Of a stretch of 64,000 bases of DNA, positions 23,229-29,383 are shown piece after piece. The notes below the pieces were generated by a model. That model saw only the letters and a list, made by a program, of their open reading frames with translations, made no database searches and was not told where the DNA came from. The position numbers were made by a program, and so were the translations under genes. Source of the stretch: a virus (taxonomy: Duplodnaviria > Caudoviricetes); IMG/VR virus record IMGVR_UViG_3300010355_000898, positions 128,001 to 192,000 of that record; one strand, written 5' to 3'. The first letter of the stretch is position 1; each line of letters begins with the position of its first letter.

Positions 23229-23303
23229 CGATCACAGGTGTTATCTGGCAGCATACCCGGCTCTTAACCGGTGAGGTCGTGGGTTCAAATCCCCGGTGAT
23301 CGA
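23229..23303 (+). tRNA. tRNA-Lys(CTT)
   Basis: cgatcac/gtgatcg; ct CTT aa. Confidence 0.88.
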
Positions 23304-23312
23304 CTGAGATTT

Positions 23313-23386
23313 TGGAAATTAGCACAATGGTAGTGCGGCTCGCTCTGAACGAGTTGATGGGAGTTCGATCCTCTCATTTCCAACCA
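23313..23386 (+). tRNA. tRNA-Gln(CTG)
   Basis: ct CTG aa; CCA. Confidence 0.92.
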
Positions 23387-23413
23387 AGACAATGAGCAGT
23401 GACAGTGCTCTGA

Positions 23414-23425
23414 GTTCTTTGACAA
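23414..23425 (+). promoter_or_regulatory. boxA-like antitermination site
   Basis: GTTCTTTGACAA. Confidence 0.6.
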
Positions 23426-23440
23426 TTGAATAGCAATATT

Positions 23441-23514
23441 GCGTCTATGGTATAATAGCATTATGCAGGCCTTCCAAGCCTTGCGATCTGGGTGCAACTC
23501 CCAGTGGACGCTCC
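23441..23514 (+). tRNA. tRNA-Gly(TCC)
   Basis: ct TCC aa; U73. Confidence 0.9.
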
Positions 23515-23562
23515 GGGGTTTGTTTATGGTGCTTCCCAACAAAAAAATGTGAACCGTACAAT

Positions 23563-23638
23563 GCCCATTTAGCTCAGCAGGTAGAGCAGTAGTTTTGTAA
23601 ACTACCGGTCACTGGTTCAATTCCGGTAATGGGCTCCA
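23563..23638 (+). tRNA. tRNA-Thr(TGT)
   Basis: tt TGT aa; CCA. Confidence 0.95.
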
Positions 23639-23639
23639 C

Positions 23640-23725
23640 AGCGGGGATGTAGTGAAAAGGTGTCACATTAGGCTCATAACCTAATCCTAACGGCGCGAAA
23701 GGTTCAATTCCTTCCCCCGCTACCA
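23640..23725 (+). tRNA. tRNA-Met(CAT), atypical long form
   Basis: agcgggg/ccccgct; ct CAT aa; 12-nt variable region. Confidence 0.8.
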
Positions 23726-23728
23726 AAT

Positions 23729-23803
23729 GGTCGCATCGTCTATTGGCTAGGACATCTGCTTCTCAAGCAGGCAAGCTCAGTTCAACTCTGAGTGCGATCA
23801 CCA
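23729..23803 (+). tRNA. tRNA-Glu(CTC)
   Basis: tt CTC aa; CCA. Confidence 0.92.
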
Positions 23804-23804
23804 T

Positions 23805-23891
23805 GGAGTCAGATCATCTGGAAGGTACCAGAAGCGGTCTGTAAAACCGTTGTCTCTGTGCGGAGTGGTTCAAATCCACCTGGCTCCACCA
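23805..23891 (+). tRNA. tRNA-Tyr(GTA)
   Basis: ct GTA aa; long variable arm; CCA. Confidence 0.85.
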
Positions 23892-23949
23892 AATAAACCT
23901 GCAGTGTTCTGGGGATATCTGCCCATCAAAGAATTGTGTAGGTTTGAAT

Positions 23950-24021
23950 GGGGATGTGTGAAAGATCACTGATGAGTTTTGCATACTTGTCATGCGGGAG
24001 CGTTACCCGACATCTCCACCA
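23950..24021 (+). tRNA. tRNA-Ala(TGC), atypical
   Basis: G3:U70; tt TGC at; T-loop AGCGTTA; CCA. Confidence 0.75.
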
Positions 24022-24037
24022 ATTCATTATTGAATAT

Positions 24038-24121
24038 TGCCAAGTACCCGAGTGGAAGCAGGGGCCCGGCTGTTAACCGGATTGCGAAAGCACGCCGTGG
24101 GTTCGAATCCTACCTTGGCAG
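24038..24121 (+). tRNA. tRNA-Asn(GTT) with long variable arm
   Basis: ct GTT aa; V-arm tgc-gaaa-gca; G73. Confidence 0.88.
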
Positions 24122-24169
24122 CCCAGGAGTTTTTTCAGGTTCTCCAAGAATAAAAAAACCTGAAGGTAC

Positions 24170-24249
24170 CCACTCGTGGTGGAATAGCAGACACGCTGGT
24201 CTCAGAAGCCAGTACCCTGAGTGTGAGAGTGCAAGTCTCTCCGAGTGGA
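24170..24249 (+). tRNA. tRNA-Leu(CAG)
   Basis: ct CAG aa; A73. Confidence 0.88.
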
Positions 24250-24251
24250 CT

Positions 24252-24325
24252 GTGGTCATAGTGTAAAGGTTTGCACGCGAGGCTGTGATCCTCTCAGTAC
24301 GGGTTCGAATCCCGTTGATCACCCA
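24252..24325 (+). tRNA. tRNA-His(GTG)
   Basis: ct GTG at; C73. Confidence 0.92.
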
Positions 24326-24332
24326 AATCTAT

Positions 24333-24407
24333 TGGACGTTGGCGCAGAGGTAGCGCAGTGCTCCTACAAAGCGAAGGTCGTCAGTTCGATCCTGACACGT
24401 CCAACCA
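24333..24407 (+). tRNA. tRNA-Val(TAC)
   Basis: loop cc TAC aa (C33); CCA. Confidence 0.82.
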
Positions 24408-24409
24408 AT

Positions 24410-24483
24410 CTCCCAATGGCGCAGTTGGATAGCGCATACGTTTCCTAAACGTGAGGTCGCAGGTTCGAATCCTGCTTGGGAGG
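24410..24483 (+). tRNA. tRNA-Arg(CCT)
   Basis: tt CCT aa. Confidence 0.95.
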
Positions 24484-24498
24484 CCGAAGAAAGTTTAT

Positions 24499-24572
24499 GC
24501 CCCCGTGGCGCAATGGATTAGCGCGAGTGGCTTCTATCCACAAGGTTGTAGGTTCGAATCCTACCGGGGGTA
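24499..24572 (+). tRNA. tRNA-Arg(TCT)
   Basis: ct TCT at. Confidence 0.93.
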
Positions 24573-24691
24573 CTGTGCCAGTTCAACTGGATGATTTCTG
24601 AGGGTAGCTAATGTCAGAAAGAGAATGAAAAATAACGCTGCCAAAACGGGCAACAGCGTTAATGTATGAAAATATGTTAGACTGAAGATAT

Positions 24692-24763
24692 CTGGATGTA
24701 AGTCAGCGGCAGACATCCTCGCCTGGAACGAGGGAGCCGGGGGTTCGAGTCCCTCCATCCAGA
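24692..24763 (+). tRNA. tRNA-Pro(TGG)
   Basis: C1:G72; loop cc TGG aa (C33). Confidence 0.85.
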
Positions 24764-24768
24764 CAAAT

Positions 24769-24842
24769 ATCCCGGTAGCACAACTGGACTGTGTATTCAG
24801 CTACGAACTGAAAGGTTGGGGGTTCGAATCCCTCTCGGGATG
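24769..24842 (+). tRNA. tRNA-Arg(ACG)
   Basis: ct ACG aa. Confidence 0.92.
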
Positions 24843-24885
24843 CCGAGAGTTTGAATGTTCTTCCAAAAATAAAAACATTCACAAT

Positions 24886-24970
24886 CCACACATGATGGAA
24901 AGGCAGACATGCAAGTTTGAGAGACTTGTGCCCTTGTGGTGTGCAGGTTCAAGTCCTGCTGTGTGGACCA
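24886..24970 (+). tRNA. tRNA-Leu(GAG)
   Basis: tt GAG ag; V-arm; CCA. Confidence 0.92.
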
Positions 24971-24983
24971 ATACTTAACAGTT

Positions 24984-25100
24984 ATGTATGGTGCATTTCC
25001 AAGCTTAATTGTTAATATTGCTGTTGGTTGTTTTGCAGTTTTCAGTCTGCTCATTGTTTTGGGAGCATATGCTCTCTACAAGAGTGGAAAAAAGAAGTGA
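24984..25100 (+). CDS. 38-aa single-TM peptide MYGAFPSLIVNIAVGCFAVFSLLIVLGAYALYKSGKKK
   Basis: ATACTTA-N6-ATG motif; hydrophobic core with basic tail. Confidence 0.65.
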   Translation: MYGAFPSLIVNIAVGCFAVFSLLIVLGAYALYKSGKKK

Positions 25101-25133
25101 ACATTATCCAATAGAAGATTAGAATGGAAACAT

Positions 25134-25207
25134 CGGAGTGTACCTCAATTTGGTAGAGGGCCTGCTTTGGGAGCAGAACGTTGTAGGTTCAAATCCTATC
25201 ACTCCGA
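25134..25207 (+). tRNA. tRNA-Pro(TGG)
   Basis: cggagtg/cactccg; tt TGG ga. Confidence 0.93.
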
Positions 25208-25216
25208 CAAATTAAT

Positions 25217-25291
25217 GCTCTCGTACTCATCTGGTGAGGAGGCCGGCTTGTCACGCCGAGGAGGAGGGTTCGATCCCCTTCGAGAGCGCCA
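25217..25291 (+). tRNA. tRNA-Asp(GTC)
   Basis: tt GTC ac; G73; CCA. Confidence 0.9.
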
Positions 25292-25292
25292 A

Positions 25293-25448
25293 GCCGGTCA
25301 TTTGGGTTCGAGTCCCAATGCAATTTAGTCAGGCCAGTTGAAAGTTTCATGATATAGTTGGACACTCATCATGAAATGAGTAACTGAGAGTGGTCTACCT
25401 CAATAGTCCAACATTGAGTTTGTATCATCTAATTGGCAGGATACCGGC
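25293..25448 (+). ncRNA. circularly permuted tRNA-like RNA 1 with structured insert
   Basis: T-arm precedes D-arm; ends pair gccggt/accggc. Confidence 0.7.
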
Positions 25449-25457
25449 AGTTATTTT

Positions 25458-25536
25458 GGGTCTAATGATGGTTCTGTATGCAATTGAACCCACAAATGGA
25501 AATTGTATACGTTGGGTTCAATTCCCAATAGATCCA
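25458..25536 (+). ncRNA. mini tmRNA-TLD-like RNA
   Basis: acceptor G3:U70 and A73; no D-stem; 10-bp helix; canonical T-arm. Confidence 0.6.
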
Positions 25537-25545
25537 CTAAATAAT

Positions 25546-25621
25546 GGGTTGTTAGCTGATATGGTTATAGCATGCGCCTGAAGAGCGCGGGAATTCAGTT
25601 CGATTCTGAAACAACTCACCA
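25546..25621 (+). tRNA. tRNA-Phe(GAA)
   Basis: ct GAA ga; CCA. Confidence 0.92.
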
Positions 25622-25660
25622 GAGGTTGAGTGGTGTGCCTCTAAGAAAGCACCACACCAA

Positions 25661-25737
25661 CGAAGTCGACAGGCAAGGTCGCCGAAGAATCCTGATAAGA
25701 TTCTGTATGCTGGGTTCGATTCCCAGGACTTCGACCA
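25661..25737 (+). tRNA. tRNA-Ile(GAT)
   Basis: ct GAT aa; CCA. Confidence 0.85.
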
Positions 25738-25837
25738 ATGTGCATGATATCGCGGAGATATCATATTCAGAGTGTTAAAGATCTGAATACCGAATATCAA
25801 ACCTGATCAGTTTATACGGTGCCACTTTAACAGCTAT

Positions 25838-25911
25838 GTCTCATTAGTGTAATGGTAGCACGATGGTTTCCAAGTCCATCTGTCAGGGTTCAAATCCTTG
25901 GTGAGATGCCA
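25838..25911 (+). tRNA. tRNA-Trp(CCA)
   Basis: tt CCA ag; G73; U31:U39 mismatch. Confidence 0.85.
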
Positions 25912-26021
25912 AGTAGACGGTTGTAGCGTTCAACGATTAGTGTCTACTCTGAGTGTAGGTGTGACAGCAGGCCCGCTCAGCGCAAGTAACGCAATGAATT
26001 GTGAAACACTGTTGTCACCAT

Positions 26022-26096
26022 GCGTCAATAACTCAATGGTAGAGTAGCGGGCTTTTAACCCGTTAGTTGAGAGTTCAAGTCTCTCTTGACGCACCA
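26022..26096 (+). tRNA. tRNA-Lys(TTT)
   Basis: ct TTT aa; CCA. Confidence 0.95.
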
Positions 26097-26098
26097 AT

Positions 26099-26173
26099 AT
26101 GCCTGTGGTGAAATGGGATCATATCCGGTTTTTAACCGGTAAGTTGGGGGTTCAAATCCCTTCAGGCGTACCA
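26099..26173 (+). tRNA. tRNA-Lys(TTT)
   Basis: tt TTT aa; CCA. Confidence 0.87.
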
Positions 26174-26175
26174 TC

Positions 26176-26250
26176 GGGAGTGTAGGACCGGTCGACCTAG
26201 GATGTCTTATAAACATCCGTAGCTCAGTTCAACTCTGAGCACTCCCACCA
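26176..26250 (+). tRNA. tRNA-Ile(TAT)
   Basis: gatgt-ct TAT aa-acatc; A73; CCA. Confidence 0.82.
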
Positions 26251-26255
26251 ACAAT

Positions 26256-26339
26256 GCTCACATGGCGGAATGGCAGACGCGGCTGACTCAAAATCAGCTA
26301 CCGAAAGGTGTGGGGGTTCAAGTCCCTCTGTGAGCACCA
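26256..26339 (+). tRNA. tRNA-Leu(CAA)
   Basis: ct CAA aa; V-arm; CCA. Confidence 0.95.
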
Positions 26340-26340
26340 T

Positions 26341-26415
26341 GTTCCACAGCTCTGCGATGAGTAATTGCGTCTGCAAAACGTTGGTGGGTCAGTTCAATTC
26401 TGACGTGGAACTCCA
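26341..26415 (+). tRNA. tRNA-Cys(GCA)
   Basis: ct GCA aa; U73; CCA; atypical D-arm. Confidence 0.8.
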
Positions 26416-26420
26416 AATTT

Positions 26421-26496
26421 GCCCATGTAGTTCAATTGGCAGAACACATGTCTCGTAAACATGAAGTTAACAGTTCAATTCTGTTCTTGGGCTCCA
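26421..26496 (+). tRNA. tRNA-Thr(CGT)
   Basis: ct CGT aa; CCA. Confidence 0.92.
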
Positions 26497-26507
26497 ACAA
26501 AATTAAT

Positions 26508-26583
26508 GGCTCTGTCATCTAACGGCTTAGGATGTTAGACTTTCTATCTGATCATACGGGTTCAAATCCCGTCAGAGTCACCA
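26508..26583 (+). tRNA. tRNA-Glu(TTC)
   Basis: ct TTC ta; CCA. Confidence 0.92.
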
Positions 26584-26584
26584 T

Positions 26585-26656
26585 CGTTACTGCACAAGGT
26601 GTGACCAGAATTTCATAAGTTCTTGGGTGAGGGTTCGATTCCCTCAGTAACGACCA
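26585..26656 (+). tRNA. tRNA-CAT (Met or Ile2), reduced D-arm
   Basis: cgttact/agtaacg; tt CAT aa; CCA. Confidence 0.75.
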
Positions 26657-26964
26657 ACACAATCTGTTCAAGTGACTGAAGTCAAGCCCCTTACTCGGGG
26701 GTGAAGTACCAATGCCAGAAACTGATTGGGTCCAAGGATAGTGAAACAGAACGCAATGTAGTCTCGTTGGACGATCAGGCAGTTTCTTAATCGTCAGCCA
26801 GATGTAATGGTCAAGATAACAATGACTCAGAGTTGCAACCATTTGTGGTGAAAATCCATCATATCAGTAACAGTCAGCGAGGCTAGCTGATTGGATATGT
26901 GACAGAAATGCAGTTTCATGAAAGTAGGTGATAGGGTTGAGATCCTATCCGGGACAGAATGTGT
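26657..26964 (+). ncRNA. ~310-nt structured ncRNA, family unassigned
   Basis: 5'/3' ends pair; many hairpins; 8-bp loop-loop complementarity. Confidence 0.7.
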
Positions 26965-26972
26965 TGATTTAT

Positions 26973-27056
26973 GCTCACGTGGTTGGAATAGCAGACACGG
27001 CAGTCTCAAAAATTGCTGGGAGAAATCTCGTGGGGGTGCAAGTCCCTCCGTGAGCA
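26973..27056 (+). tRNA. tRNA-Leu(CAA)
   Basis: ct CAA aa; V-arm. Confidence 0.9.
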
Positions 27057-27179
27057 CTGATGAAAATGTGTGTGACAGCTAATGAGAACACTGCTCGTTA
27101 AGTTGATGACCGTCAATGGAGAAATCATATCAGTTGGGTTCATAACATCTAATCATACACCAGTAGTCACCGGTTCGAT

Positions 27180-27251
27180 TCTCCGGTAGCTCAGCGGGAG
27201 AGCGGGAAGCTGTTAACTTCTTGGTCGTAGGTTCGATCCCTACCTGGAGAG
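27180..27251 (+). tRNA. tRNA-Asn(GTT)
   Basis: ct GTT aa; G73. Confidence 0.94.
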
Positions 27252-27264
27252 CAATTTTTATCAT

Positions 27265-27352
27265 GGAAGGTCAACCCAATTGGCGATGGGAGCTGTTTTG
27301 AACACAGTCGAGTGTAAGAGCCTTGGGGGTTCAACTCCCTCACCTTCCGCCA
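27265..27352 (+). tRNA. tRNA-Ser(TGA)
   Basis: tt TGA ac; V-arm; GCCA. Confidence 0.92.
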
Positions 27353-27442
27353 AGTTCTGAGTGCACTCAGAGGTGTTCCCAATTGACACCAAGTGGAAAC
27401 TGTATTCCACGCAATTGAATATTCCTGGGTCACCCTGGGGAT

Positions 27443-27514
27443 GCGATCGAGGCCGACTGGTGAGGCGATTGCTTGCCAAGCAATCTTATGTGGGTTCAAT
27501 TCCCATCGATCGCT
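27443..27514 (+). tRNA. tRNA-Gly(GCC)
   Basis: tt GCC aa; U73. Confidence 0.9.
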
Positions 27515-27518
27515 CTAA

Positions 27519-27705
27519 GCTGGAGACATTGGTTCGAATCCAATCAAGATAAAGAGTATCAAATACTGTGAAGTTACCATCACTTGAATGTACATAGCGC
27601 TTAAAGTAATTTTAGAAGAAAATGTTCTAGACAAATATTCTAAAATGATGACATTCTAAATGGTTGAGAAATTTATTTTGTAGCTCAATTGGCAAGAGCA
27701 ACAGC
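27519..27705 (+). ncRNA. circularly permuted tRNA-like RNA 2 with structured insert
   Basis: T-arm attgg-ttcgaat-ccaat precedes D-arm tagctc-aattggcaa-gagc; acceptor caagata/tattttg. Confidence 0.75.
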
Positions 27706-27713
27706 AGATTTTT

Positions 27714-27807
27714 GGAAGACAAATCAGTCAGGGACTGAACCTGTTTGCTAAACAGTGGGCTACCCATGAAGAATGGGAGTGGGTTTCGAGTACTCTGTCT
27801 TCCGCCA
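27714..27807 (+). tRNA. tRNA-Ser(GCT)
   Basis: tt GCT aa; long V-arm; GCCA. Confidence 0.87.
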
Positions 27808-27808
27808 T

Positions 27809-27896
27809 AGAGAGTAAATTAACGAAGCGTTAAGCCTGTCTCGAAAACAGTGCGATGGTTGATGAAATCATTGGGGATCAGGACCTCTGCTCTCTG
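27809..27896 (+). tRNA. tRNA-Ser(CGA)
   Basis: ct CGA aa; V-arm; atypical T-loop. Confidence 0.78.
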
Positions 27897-27901
27897 CAAA
27901 T

Positions 27902-27990
27902 GGAAGGTAAACCGGTTAGGATACCGGGCATGTTTGGAAAACATTGAGAAGGTTAAAAACTTTGTGTTTCGAGTACACTGCTTTCCGCCA
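27902..27990 (+). tRNA. tRNA-Ser(GGA)
   Basis: tt GGA aa; V-arm; GCCA. Confidence 0.87.
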
Positions 27991-27992
27991 AT

Positions 27993-28067
27993 GTCCCAAT
28001 AGTATAGTGGCAATTATGCATCCTTGGTAAGGATGAAACCTGGGTTCGATTCCCAGTTGGGGCTCCA
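27993..28067 (+). tRNA. tRNA-Thr(GGT)
   Basis: tt GGT aa; CCA. Confidence 0.93.
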
Positions 28068-28071
28068 TAAT

Positions 28072-28143
28072 GCGCACAGAGTGTGCTGGGTACACATCAC
28101 CATGACGGGGTGAACAGGTTGAGTTCAATTCTCAATGTGCGCA
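28072..28143 (+). tRNA. tRNA-Val(GAC)
   Basis: tcacc-at GAC gg-ggtga. Confidence 0.85.
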
Positions 28144-28172
28144 CAGATTGTTTCAACACAATATTTAACGTT

Positions 28173-28784
28173 ATGTCTATTGATACAAAACGTTGGGGTA
28201 AAATTGCCGGGATTCTCAAAGAGAATATGTGGGATGCAACAACTGATGCATTGCAACGTGATTGCAGGTGTGAAAGTTGTGGTAAAATCATAACACAGGA
28301 TGATATTGATGAGTATGAGGCAGAAGGTGGAGAAGGTTGTCCTGCTGTTTGCACAGATTGTGCTGATGAAGAGGCAAGATTGCCATCATCGGGTGCAAAA
28401 CATATGTGGGAAAGTTTTTCTGTCAGCATTATGCAGGAAGCACCATACATTTATAAACCATTCAAGAGCACTGCTCCTGCTCCAATGTGTCAAGCTTGTG
28501 GAAATGAATTGACATATAGGGATAGAGTTGAGTATGAGAATGAGGGTGGAGAAGGTTGGCCAGAACTCTGCAGTGATTGCACAGATTACAAAAATCCTAA
28601 ATGGGCTCAAACAAAAAAGTCAATTGAAGAGGTTGACGAACCGGTTGTTGGAGCAGATCCCAATTGCAAAAATTGTGCAGGAACTGGGTGGGAATATGAA
28701 ACCGGTCAGGATGGTGAACGTGAAAAGGTCAATTGTGACTGTATTCACAAACGTAAATCAGATAAATTGGCAATGAAAAAATAA
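28173..28784 (+). CDS. multi-zinc-ribbon protein
   Basis: two CxxC..EYExEGGEG.P..CxxC repeats plus a DnaJ-like CKNCAGTG; ATATTTA-N5-ATG. Confidence 0.8.
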   Translation: MSIDTKRWGKIAGILKENMWDATTDALQRDCRCESCGKIITQDDIDEYEAEGGEGCPAVCTDCADEEARLPSSGAKHMWESFSVSIMQEAPYIYKPFKSTAPAPMCQACGNELTYRDRVEYENEGGEGWPELCSDCTDYKNPKWAQTKKSIEEVDEPVVGADPNCKNCAGTGWEYETGQDGEREKVNCDCIHKRKSDKLAMKK

Positions 28785-28837
28785 CAAATTCTTGGTGCAC
28801 AATCTGACAGCGTACAGTAATATCAGATTGTGAACAT

Positions 28838-28913
28838 GGCTCTGTCATCTAATGGTTTAGGATCACAGACTTTCGATCTGTTTATGCGCGTTCGAATCGC
28901 GTCAGAGTCACCA
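28838..28913 (+). tRNA. tRNA-Glu(TTC)
   Basis: ct TTC ga; CCA; own promoter at 28795. Confidence 0.93.
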
Positions 28914-28916
28914 TAT

Positions 28917-28990
28917 TGGGATATAGCTCAAAGGCAGAGCAACCGGCTTTGAACCGGTGTATGTTGGTTCGATTCCAGCTATCCCAACCA
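28917..28990 (+). tRNA. tRNA-Gln(TTG)
   Basis: ct TTG aa; CCA. Confidence 0.94.
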
Positions 28991-28996
28991 ATCAAA

Positions 28997-29328
28997 GGGG
29001 CGAACAGGTTTCGACGGGTTTGCTCATTCACAGTAAGCATGCAGTGTGAACAACTCTTTGTTCAGAATATTTGCAAACACAAATACACAAGATTTCGCAC
29101 TTGCTGCGTAAATCGCTGTCTGTGCACCATGAGATCTGATGTACAGATGGTTCAATTTTGATCTCAAACTGTTGTCTGATGATTTGGGTCAACAGTGTTC
29201 AGAAATCTGAGATGATAATCGTCGCATAAAAAGTTATCAACCTGCGCACAGGTTATTGCGCTGAAGCATGTGATAGAAAACTGTGAATGTAAAATTCGGA
29301 CATGGGTTCAATTCCCATACGCTCCACA
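28997..29328 (+). ncRNA. ssrA: tmRNA; tag ANTNTQDFALAA at 29073-29111
   Basis: GGGGCGAACAGGTTTCGAC 5' end; G3:U70; T-arm; ALAA-stop tag. Confidence 0.95.
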
Positions 29329-29383
29329 ACATTGCTATTCAATTGTCAACACAATTCAATCAGTAAATTCTGAAAGAAAAATA

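Follow-up and report, generated by a model that had tools for sequence, protein, structure and literature searches.

The window analysed here is a stretch of 64,000 nucleotides, corresponding to bases 128001-192000 of a 269,547-bp IMG/VR virus record that represents an uncultured giant phage from sewage sludge. We propose that its positions 26657-26964, located between two tRNA genes, probably encode a stable non-coding RNA (ncRNA) of ~308 nt with a compact fold, which would act in trans and would belong to a small, uncatalogued family that one clade of T4-like giant phages carries within its tRNA arrays. This molecule, hereafter the window RNA, represents an RNA family and a fold that are both new, set in an already known context of enigmatic large RNAs, the tRNA islands of phages. 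The initial annotation had read the stretch as an ornate ncRNA of ~310 nt between two tRNAs, a proposal which is borne out by homologues, by covariation and by a contig in an RNA library. The source record has a GC content of 37%, is an estimated 74% complete and encodes a major head protein of the T4 type. Its tRNA array (23229-29327) comprises 37 tRNA genes and a transfer-messenger RNA (tmRNA), all called on the + strand by ARAGORN and Rfam.

Homologues and structural conservation

The closest relatives, the ENA/Logan contigs L101-L104, were reached via the array protein encoded at 28173-28784. They are syntenic, and their eight differences from the window RNA are all loop changes or AU-to-GU; being 94-98% identical throughout, they are too close to be informative for the structure. 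A BLAST of the window RNA against 25 related IMG/VR records returned no match, and overlooked even the true homologue in G001, a 309-kb, 91%-complete IMG/VR record with 56 tRNAs that was found as a major-capsid relative. This homologue was recovered by nhmmer (E 7e-7) and exactly fills the 315-nt gap between a tRNA-Val and a tRNA-Pro. A 257-aa protein encoded upstream of the G001 array belongs to a family of 473 proteins, and a covariance model (CM) search of the contigs encoding members of this family yielded two further lineages, L235 and the identical copies L244-L247. The fifth lineage, L312, lies in another IMG/VR record and was found by a pattern scan with three invariant blocks and CM search. 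Other routes were not productive: two neighbouring proteins, the 257-aa protein and UvdE, gave no relatives in IMG/VR, the identity of UvdE in a large protein database falls from 96% directly to 44%, and pattern scans of viral, metagenome and genome contigs with blocks shared by the window and G001 returned chance or protein-coding matches, all rejected by the CM. One of the scan blocks, GATCAGGCAGTT, later turned out not to be conserved.

The window RNA is 51-57% identical to the four other lineages, which are 75-93% identical among themselves. Each homologue fills a gap of ~315 nt starting at a tRNA 3' end. The upstream tRNA is directly abutted in all five lineages, and 5-8 nt separate the RNA 3' end from the following annotated tRNA; L235 is the exception, as no tRNA is called at this position although tRNA-like sequence follows.

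Three models were built. Model R1 carried an RNAalifold structure that was wrong at the ends and still useful for searching; R2 was built from G001, L235 and L244 only, the window RNA being excluded, and carries the hand structure; R3 is the sequence-only counterpart from the same alignment. R2 matches the window RNA over its full length (26665-26956, 105.0 bits, E 5e-36), whereas R3 gives 47.9 bits, and the structure therefore adds ~57 bits in a window sequence that had never been seen. In the six-row alignment, 95.3% of cells pair against 82.1 +/- 1.0 with shuffled partners, and 43 of the 87 pairs are changed on both sides against 22.4 in the shuffles, the observed value being reached in 0 of 500 shuffles in either case. 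When the 3' partners are slid by 1-3 columns, pairing falls to 38-43% and both-sided changes to 3-11. In the hand table, 49 of 107 helix positions are compensatory and 8 of 397 cells unpaired. The covariation that the initial annotation had suggested checking is strong across the five lineages, in the pair counts as in the leave-out CM. The window RNA is shown by this comparison of sequences to be conserved as a structure, beyond mere sequence.

The distribution of the family is patchy. The RNA is present as a single copy in the three records searched whole, and CM R2 matches nothing but the window RNA, whether in the window or in the whole 270-kb genome. A further 48 records, related by their major capsid protein, and the loci L232, L234 and L236-L243 were negative in CM searches; as most of these records are fragments, the absence carries little weight except where the Val-Pro junction could be read. 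Among the 13 array spacers of at least 60 nt, the window RNA is the only one with detectable homologues in distant relatives; the spacers 25292-25545, 25912-26021 and 27516-27713 have no nhmmer homologue in the arrays of these relatives, and just one tRNA is well conserved between the window and G001 arrays. To date, all members of the family come from a single clade of T4-like giant phages, sampled in metagenomes of water and sludge.

At the Val-Pro junction occupied by the RNA in G001, L236, L240 and L239 carry unrelated structured spacers of 115-125 nt, which argues that arrays exchange RNA cassettes. L236:11303-11420 and L240:11190-11314 are a common structured spacer of ~120 nt at the tRNA-Val/tRNA-Pro junction, with shared blocks that include GCGUUCCUUGGG and CUAACGGGAUACCGGAUG, and may represent another ncRNA family. 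L239:2811-2925 is a 115-nt element with a terminal stem of 9-11 bp, and looks like a tRNA-derived cassette because it contains two T-arm-like hairpins, GUAGGUUCGAUUCCUAC and GUGGUUCGAUUCCAC. These observations bear on the hypothesis that the window RNA is a cis-acting spacer, whose fold would merely insulate the neighbouring tRNAs for folding or cutting and whose excised piece would be functionless. The RNA does always fill exactly one inter-tRNA gap, relatives do carry structured spacers of ~120 nt, unrelated to it, in that position, and part of the clade dispenses with the RNA. However, an insulator would need far less than a fold of sixteen helices with a five-way junction and a tertiary loop-loop contact, maintained over 45% divergence, and the fold is kept while its tRNA neighbours change from lineage to lineage (Met/Leu, Val/Pro, Pro/Pro). 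The invariant unpaired motifs suggest contacts beyond secondary structure, and a full-length contig in an RNA library suggests that the molecule accumulates. We consider such a spacer very unlikely.

Architecture of the fold

The architecture was established with RNAalifold on the three G-type sequences and by hand comparison with the window sequence, and the two agree. The fold comprises at least 16 helices (Table 1): a terminal helix, an outer multi-helix junction bearing the hairpins P2, P3, P4 and P12, a long irregular stem, and an inner, nearly linker-free five-way junction from which P5-P6, P7-P8, P9 and P10-P11 radiate. The two junctions are tied by an 8-bp loop-loop helix between the P4 loop AGAAACUG (26717-26724) and the P6 loop CAGUUUCU (26780-26787). 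This helix is 96% paired, with AU exchanged for GC, or the reverse, at two of the eight pairs; the third pair suggests more than one event, because AU is found there both in the window and in the otherwise G-type L312. Threaded with the window sequence, the nested model reaches -72.7 kcal/mol, the 8-bp loop-loop helix not being counted.

Several helices are maintained by entirely different sequences. P1, 13 bp long in the window, is replaced in homologues by an unrelated helix of 18-19 bp, and differs again in L235 and L312, giving at least three unrelated sequence versions. P4 reads CUGGC/GUCAG in the other lineages, where P7 is rewritten to GUGCACC/GGUGCAU; P10 is CCUGGC/GCCAGG or UGGGAU/GUCCUA elsewhere, and the P6 stem is different in every lineage (GUGGGA/UCUCAC, GGUGG/CCAUU, CGGUGG/CCACCG). 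Both-sided changes affect five of the six pairs of P10 and four of six in P11, which are 97-100% paired, as well as three of six in P12, which is 100% paired. In the long irregular stem, five of the seven P14 pairs are changed on both sides in the CM alignment, in which P13b is 83% and P13a 88% paired, and in the hand alignment all three pairs of P13b show compensatory changes when the window type is compared with the other one. Local hairpins GCGY/GCGU, favoured in this region by the minimum free energy (MFE) structure of G001 as a single sequence, were dropped, given that the long-range stem covaries.

Four unpaired motifs, CUGAA, GGUCC, UCAGAG and GUAGGU, are invariant. The CC of the junction motif GGUCCAAGG may pair with the GG of GUAGG at 26927-26928, a pair that never varies. 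Words resembling a Shine-Dalgarno sequence and let-7 in GAGGUAGGU were dismissed as chance resemblances, since the corresponding copy in the window is AAAGUAGGU.

Nine of the eleven pairings drawn in the initial annotation are retained in this model. Compensatory changes are found in the paired ends acaca-a-tctgttc/ggacaga-a-tgtgt (P1) and in gcccc/ggggt (P3), ccaat/attgg (P4), aatggt/accatt (P7), catatc/gatatg (P10), cagtcagc/gctgattg (P11) and gatagg/cctatc (P12). The 8-nt complements agaaactg/cagtttct, which had been noticed as loops, do lie in the loops of two covarying hairpins, and their contact covaries. The helix tgac/gtca (P2) is conserved and compatible with the model, but an alternative long-range partner competes for it: the pairing of the P2 region with 26823-26836, at the expense of P2 and P8, is 82% paired and of similar quality. 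Two pairings were abandoned, as tccaa/ttgga is not matched by any pairing of the other lineages and is incompatible with the covarying P5/P6 and long stem, and gagttgca/tgcagttt is not conserved and the comparative model gives its bases other, covarying partners. Additions to that list are P5, P6, P8, P9 and the long irregular stem (26741-26759 with 26902-26919).

Table 1. Position of the window RNA, its helices and motifs, and the flanking tRNA genes (window coordinates).
Feature	Position	Strand	Description
Upstream tRNA(CAT)	26585..26656	+	CCA encoded at 3' end; ARAGORN and Rfam tRNA, 29.9 bits (low)
Whole window RNA	26657..26964	+	~308 nt, first to last base of terminal helix P1
P1, 5' strand	26657..26669	+	ACACA-A-UCUGUUC; pairs with 26952-26964
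P2 hairpin	26673..26684	+	UGAC-UGAA-GUCA; CUGAA invariant; 92% of cells pair
P3 hairpin	26686..26702	+	GCCCCU/GGGGGU; 100% paired; 2/5 pairs changed on both sides
P4 hairpin	26709..26729	+	CCAAU/AUUGG; 100% paired; 3/5 pairs changed on both sides; loop holds AGAAACUG
Junction motif GGUCCAAGG	26729..26737	+	GGUCCGA in L102 and all other lineages; GGUCC invariant
Long irregular stem, 5' strand	26741..26759	+	P14 26741-26747, P13b 26753-26755, P13a 26757-26759
P5	26761..26764 with 26800-26803	+	GUCU with AGAU; encloses P6; 100% paired; first pair GC, GU, AU
P6 hairpin	26770..26795	+	GACGAU/AUCGUC; 5/6 pairs changed on both sides; loop holds CAGUUUCU
P7	26806-26811 with 26838-26843	+	AAUGGU with ACCAUU; encloses P8; 6/7 pairs changed on both sides
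P8 small hairpin	26824-26834	+	Triloop CAG within invariant UCAGAG
P9 hairpin	26845..26859	+	GUGG/CCAU, loop UGAAAAU; 100% paired; three pair types at one position
P10 and P11	26860..26899	+	P10 CAUAUC/GAUAUG; P11 CAGUCAGC/GCUGAUUG; P11 loop ends with conserved GCUA
Long irregular stem, 3' strand	26902..26919	+	ACA..UGC..GUUUCAU; contains ACAGAA; pairs with 26741-26759
Junction GUAGGU and P12 hairpin	26924..26949	+	GUAGGU invariant; P12 GAUAGGGU/AUCCUAUC at 26930-26949
P1, 3' strand	26952..26964	+	GGACAGA-A-UGUGU; base-pair probability 0.95-0.99; compensatory changes
Tail	26965-26972	+	8 nt between window RNA and tRNA-Leu(CAA)
Downstream tRNA-Leu(CAA)	26973..27057	+	ARAGORN and Rfam tRNA, 35.4 bits

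Comparison with known RNA families

The cmscan check proposed in the initial annotation assigned the window RNA to no Rfam 15 family. With all 4227 families at gathering score, just tRNAs and the tmRNA were matched in the window, and the search of 26560-27080 at E<=10 returned the two flanking tRNAs and noise, with no match to RNase P, RNase MRP, GOLLD, ROOL, raiA, Y RNA/YrlA, 6S, HEARO, intron or small-ribozyme models. A blastn of the window RNA against GenBank phages gave no match either. Group I and group II introns were rejected at the same E<=10, and the RNA lies between two complete tRNA genes and interrupts neither.

Bacterial RNase P RNA has in common with the window RNA a similar size, a terminal P1, multi-helix junctions held by tertiary contacts, an ACAGAA motif and a link to tRNA. 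It can be hypothesised on these grounds (~300 nt, a terminal helix, two multi-helix junctions, a tertiary contact, the tRNA setting and ACAGAA) that the window RNA is a ribozyme, for example a reduced RNase P-like enzyme processing the many odd tRNAs of the phage. Yet none of the RNase P families (bacterial A/B, archaeal, nuclear, T-type), nor RNase MRP, intron or small-ribozyme models, is matched at E<=10. The conserved region CR-I, GAGGAAAGUCC, is absent, and the P4-type pseudoknot that it forms with CR-V (ACAGAA-N-CGGCUUA) is not found in the window RNA. In the covarying model, the ACAGAA bases are the 3' strand of the nested helix P13a and an internal loop; the resemblance, which the initial annotation had itself set aside, is superficial, the bases lying in a simple helix and internal loop. 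We regard a ribozyme of this kind as highly improbable.

A relation to Y RNAs was considered from the junction motif. Y RNAs, including YrlA, have a terminal stem formed from both ends and a GGUCCGA heptamer, occur in phages, and are processed by tRNA enzymes (PMC4201824). In five of the six sequences, GGUCCGA at the junction is identical to the heptamer contacted by Xenopus Ro60 (PMC4201824), and the window RNA could be imagined as a Y-RNA-like partner or decoy of the host Ro60 (Rsr) protein. We hold this to be extremely improbable. With so many known motifs available for matching, an agreement over 7 nt counts for little, and here the motif is placed at the internal junction between P4 and the long stem, outside the terminal stem P1. 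Y RNAs are about three times smaller, the window RNA has no tRNA-like module, and no Y RNA/YrlA model is matched at E<=10. Moreover, a search for TROVE/Ro60 (PF05731), positive in the Deinococcus and Bacteroides controls, found no gene in the window phage (G000) or in the 91%-complete G001.

The window RNA might also be viewed as a decayed tRNA gene with a large insert, in which P1, P2, P3, the inserts and P12 would correspond to the acceptor, D, anticodon, variable and T arms. The order of the helices and some linker lengths are cloverleaf-like, and a tRNA array is a place where such derivatives can arise. ARAGORN and Rfam call the flanking genes only, with no tRNA or tmRNA model hit on the RNA itself; the P2 loop of 4 nt is devoid of the GG of a D loop, the P3 loop has 4-6 nt, and P12 has no UUCRA T loop. 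Mere decay is ruled out by the strong purifying selection to which the 'insert' is subject, and a derivation from tRNA would at most describe the origin of the molecule, not its present nature. There is in our opinion scarcely any chance that this is the explanation. One separate observation concerns L235:18462-18513, a weak R2 match (8 bits) that resembles the P9-P10-P11 sub-domain and starts with the T-arm-like GGGUGCAAAUCCC.

The nearest parallels in setting are GOLLD and ROOL, the latter roughly 600 nt in length. The 270-kb phage carries the window RNA within its array of 37 tRNAs, and all the homologues are placed likewise. GOLLD and ROOL are RNAs of phages and prophages, often beside tRNA islands, as the initial annotation had correctly stated, many GOLLD RNAs exceed 800 nt, and their covarying kissing loops proved to be intermolecular bridges (PMC12286853). 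They share with the window RNA the phage origin, the tRNA-island setting, a many-helix fold, covarying loop-loop contacts and the lack of a known protein partner or function (PMC12286853). Membership was rejected with the Rfam models, at gathering score and at E<=10, and at ~308 nt the window RNA has an unrelated architecture. It can nevertheless be asked whether the P4 and P6 loops pair between molecules, producing dimers or larger homo-oligomers that would work as an RNA-only particle. The conservation and covariation of the 8-bp loop-loop helix, and the fact that no partner protein gene travels with the RNA, are in line with such an assembly. Conversely, the window RNA is half the size of ROOL or less, and we estimate that the lengths of P4 and P5+P6 together roughly equal the long stem, so that an intramolecular contact would be easy. 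An RNA-only assembly is on balance decidedly unlikely. The broader proposition of an autonomous RNA machine of a new class, either a self-assembling particle through inter-chain L4-L6 pairs, the half-size counterpart of ROOL and GOLLD, or a new ribozyme acting on tRNA or the ribosome during infection, is likewise unlikely.

Smaller RNAs from the tRNA region of T4 offer another comparison. RNAC and RNAD are made from the same transcripts as the tRNAs and measure roughly 120-140 nt; they are much smaller and simpler than the window RNA, and no sequence relation was seen. Also named species 1 and 2, they are small stable RNAs whose roles are unknown (PMC3014915). By analogy, they may be taken as a precedent for stable RNAs originating from a phage tRNA region.

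Expression, proposed processing and possible role

The stretch 26657-26964 is non-coding, as judged by comparison between relatives: no open reading frame (ORF) of the gap survives it, the 97.5%-identical relative L102 having a 1-nt indel, and the more distant homologues have many indels relative to the window copy. The gap between tRNA(CAT) and tRNA-Leu(CAA) measures 316 nt, and the window RNA begins at the base directly after the tRNA(CAT) 3' end. No promoter-like or terminator-like sites were seen flanking the gap on the + strand.

The locus is present in runs from sludge, wastewater, river and groundwater studies, of which X8, X15, X16 and X17 were compared with 5.4 kb of the window. The metatranscriptome run X17 contains a 322-nt contig identical to 26662-26963 without mismatch. 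The 20 nt of its 5' flank, TTCAGACGTGTGCTCTTCCG, are what we take to be an Illumina adapter end, the last four bases of which (ATCT) coincide with 26662-26665. The fusion of an adapter at the 5' side therefore indicates that the fragment had a defined end here, 5-9 nt within the 5' end predicted for the RNA. On the opposite side, the contig stops 1 nt before P1 does. This contig supports a discrete RNA of the predicted extent. The other long perfect contig listed for X17 in the 5.4 kb compared is the phage tmRNA; the depths of the contigs cannot rank the two RNAs. X17 has no cover on the ORF 28173-28784, and the RNA runs X15 and X16 gave read-length pieces of low depth on parts of the array, none of them on 26715-26895, neither of which is evidence either way. 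The groundwater DNA run X8 contains the L102-type variant.

We propose that the window RNA would be transcribed together with the tRNAs as a single precursor. A cut by RNase P at the 5' end of tRNA-Leu(CAA) would set its 3' end, and 3'-end maturation of the upstream tRNA would free its 5' end. Ordinary tRNA maturation would be sufficient to release the RNA because there is no upstream spacer and just 5-8 nt downstream. The terminal helix P1 would then shield both ends from exonucleases. Once released, the RNA would act in trans by means of its shape, most likely by binding a protein or a part of the translation or tRNA machinery; a binding shape of this kind is suggested by the conserved unpaired motifs (CUGAA, GGUCC, UCAGAG, GUAGGU) together with the locked two-junction fold. 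Our best guess would be a role in translation or tRNA metabolism, because these phages carry a tmRNA and their relatives have release-factor fragments, peptidyl-tRNA hydrolase and EF-Tu beside their arrays.

Several points weigh against this proposal. The processing by RNase P and 3'-end maturation is deduced from position, and the function in trans from the fold and the setting. At readable Val-Pro junctions of several relatives the RNA is absent from the syntenic place, and it is therefore dispensable for the clade. At the RNA level, the support comes from a single contig, found in a single library of a single study, with its strand unassigned and a carry-over of DNA possible. As a single sequence the stretch folds with an MFE of -90.2 kcal/mol, a weak result (z = -1.73, 6 of 100 shuffles equal). 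With five lineages, two of them (L235 and L244) closely related, few independent events underlie the pair counts, and the pairing figures are inflated by the fitting of the alignment to the model; the register of the window in P13b and P14 was assigned by hand, Infernal having chosen differently. It may be added that the reverse strand of the stretch folds nearly as stably.

Other features of the arrays were observed alongside. The window contains two tRNA-Leu(CAA) paralogues, at 26973-27057 and 26256-26339, the former with an altered T loop (GUGCAAG in place of GUUCAAG), no encoded CCA and 35 bits. The ORF 28173-28784, inside the array, codes for a protein of 203 aa that matches no Pfam family and contains repeated CxxC motifs resembling zinc ribbons; its product is 58% identical in the sister phage, against a DNA identity of 94-98% elsewhere, and represents a local divergence hotspot. 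The phage tmRNA, at 28997-29329, has the tag ANTNTQDFALAA, and the RNA library that contains the window RNA also has a 279-nt contig matching it perfectly. Five consecutive tRNA-Pro genes, overlapping or abutting by 1-2 nt, are found at L244:7713-8084. A full EF-Tu gene is situated just after the first tRNAs of the L236 array, and genes for RF-1 fragments, PTH2 (peptidyl-tRNA hydrolase), YAcAr, NADAR and AlkB-like proteins occur around the arrays of relatives.

Large, intricate ncRNAs without a known job are rare, and past cases have turned out to be ribozymes, riboswitches and, recently, RNA-only cages. The window RNA provides a new fold of ~300 nt, small enough for cryo-EM, chemical probing and mutagenesis. 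It may offer a handle on the way in which giant phages reshape the translation and tRNA metabolism of their hosts, because these phages encode a tmRNA as well as dozens of tRNAs, and genes of release factor, peptidyl-tRNA hydrolase and EF-Tu are found in their relatives. It also supports a picture in which the tRNA arrays of phages would be production lines for other structured RNAs, freed by the tRNA-processing enzymes of the cell.
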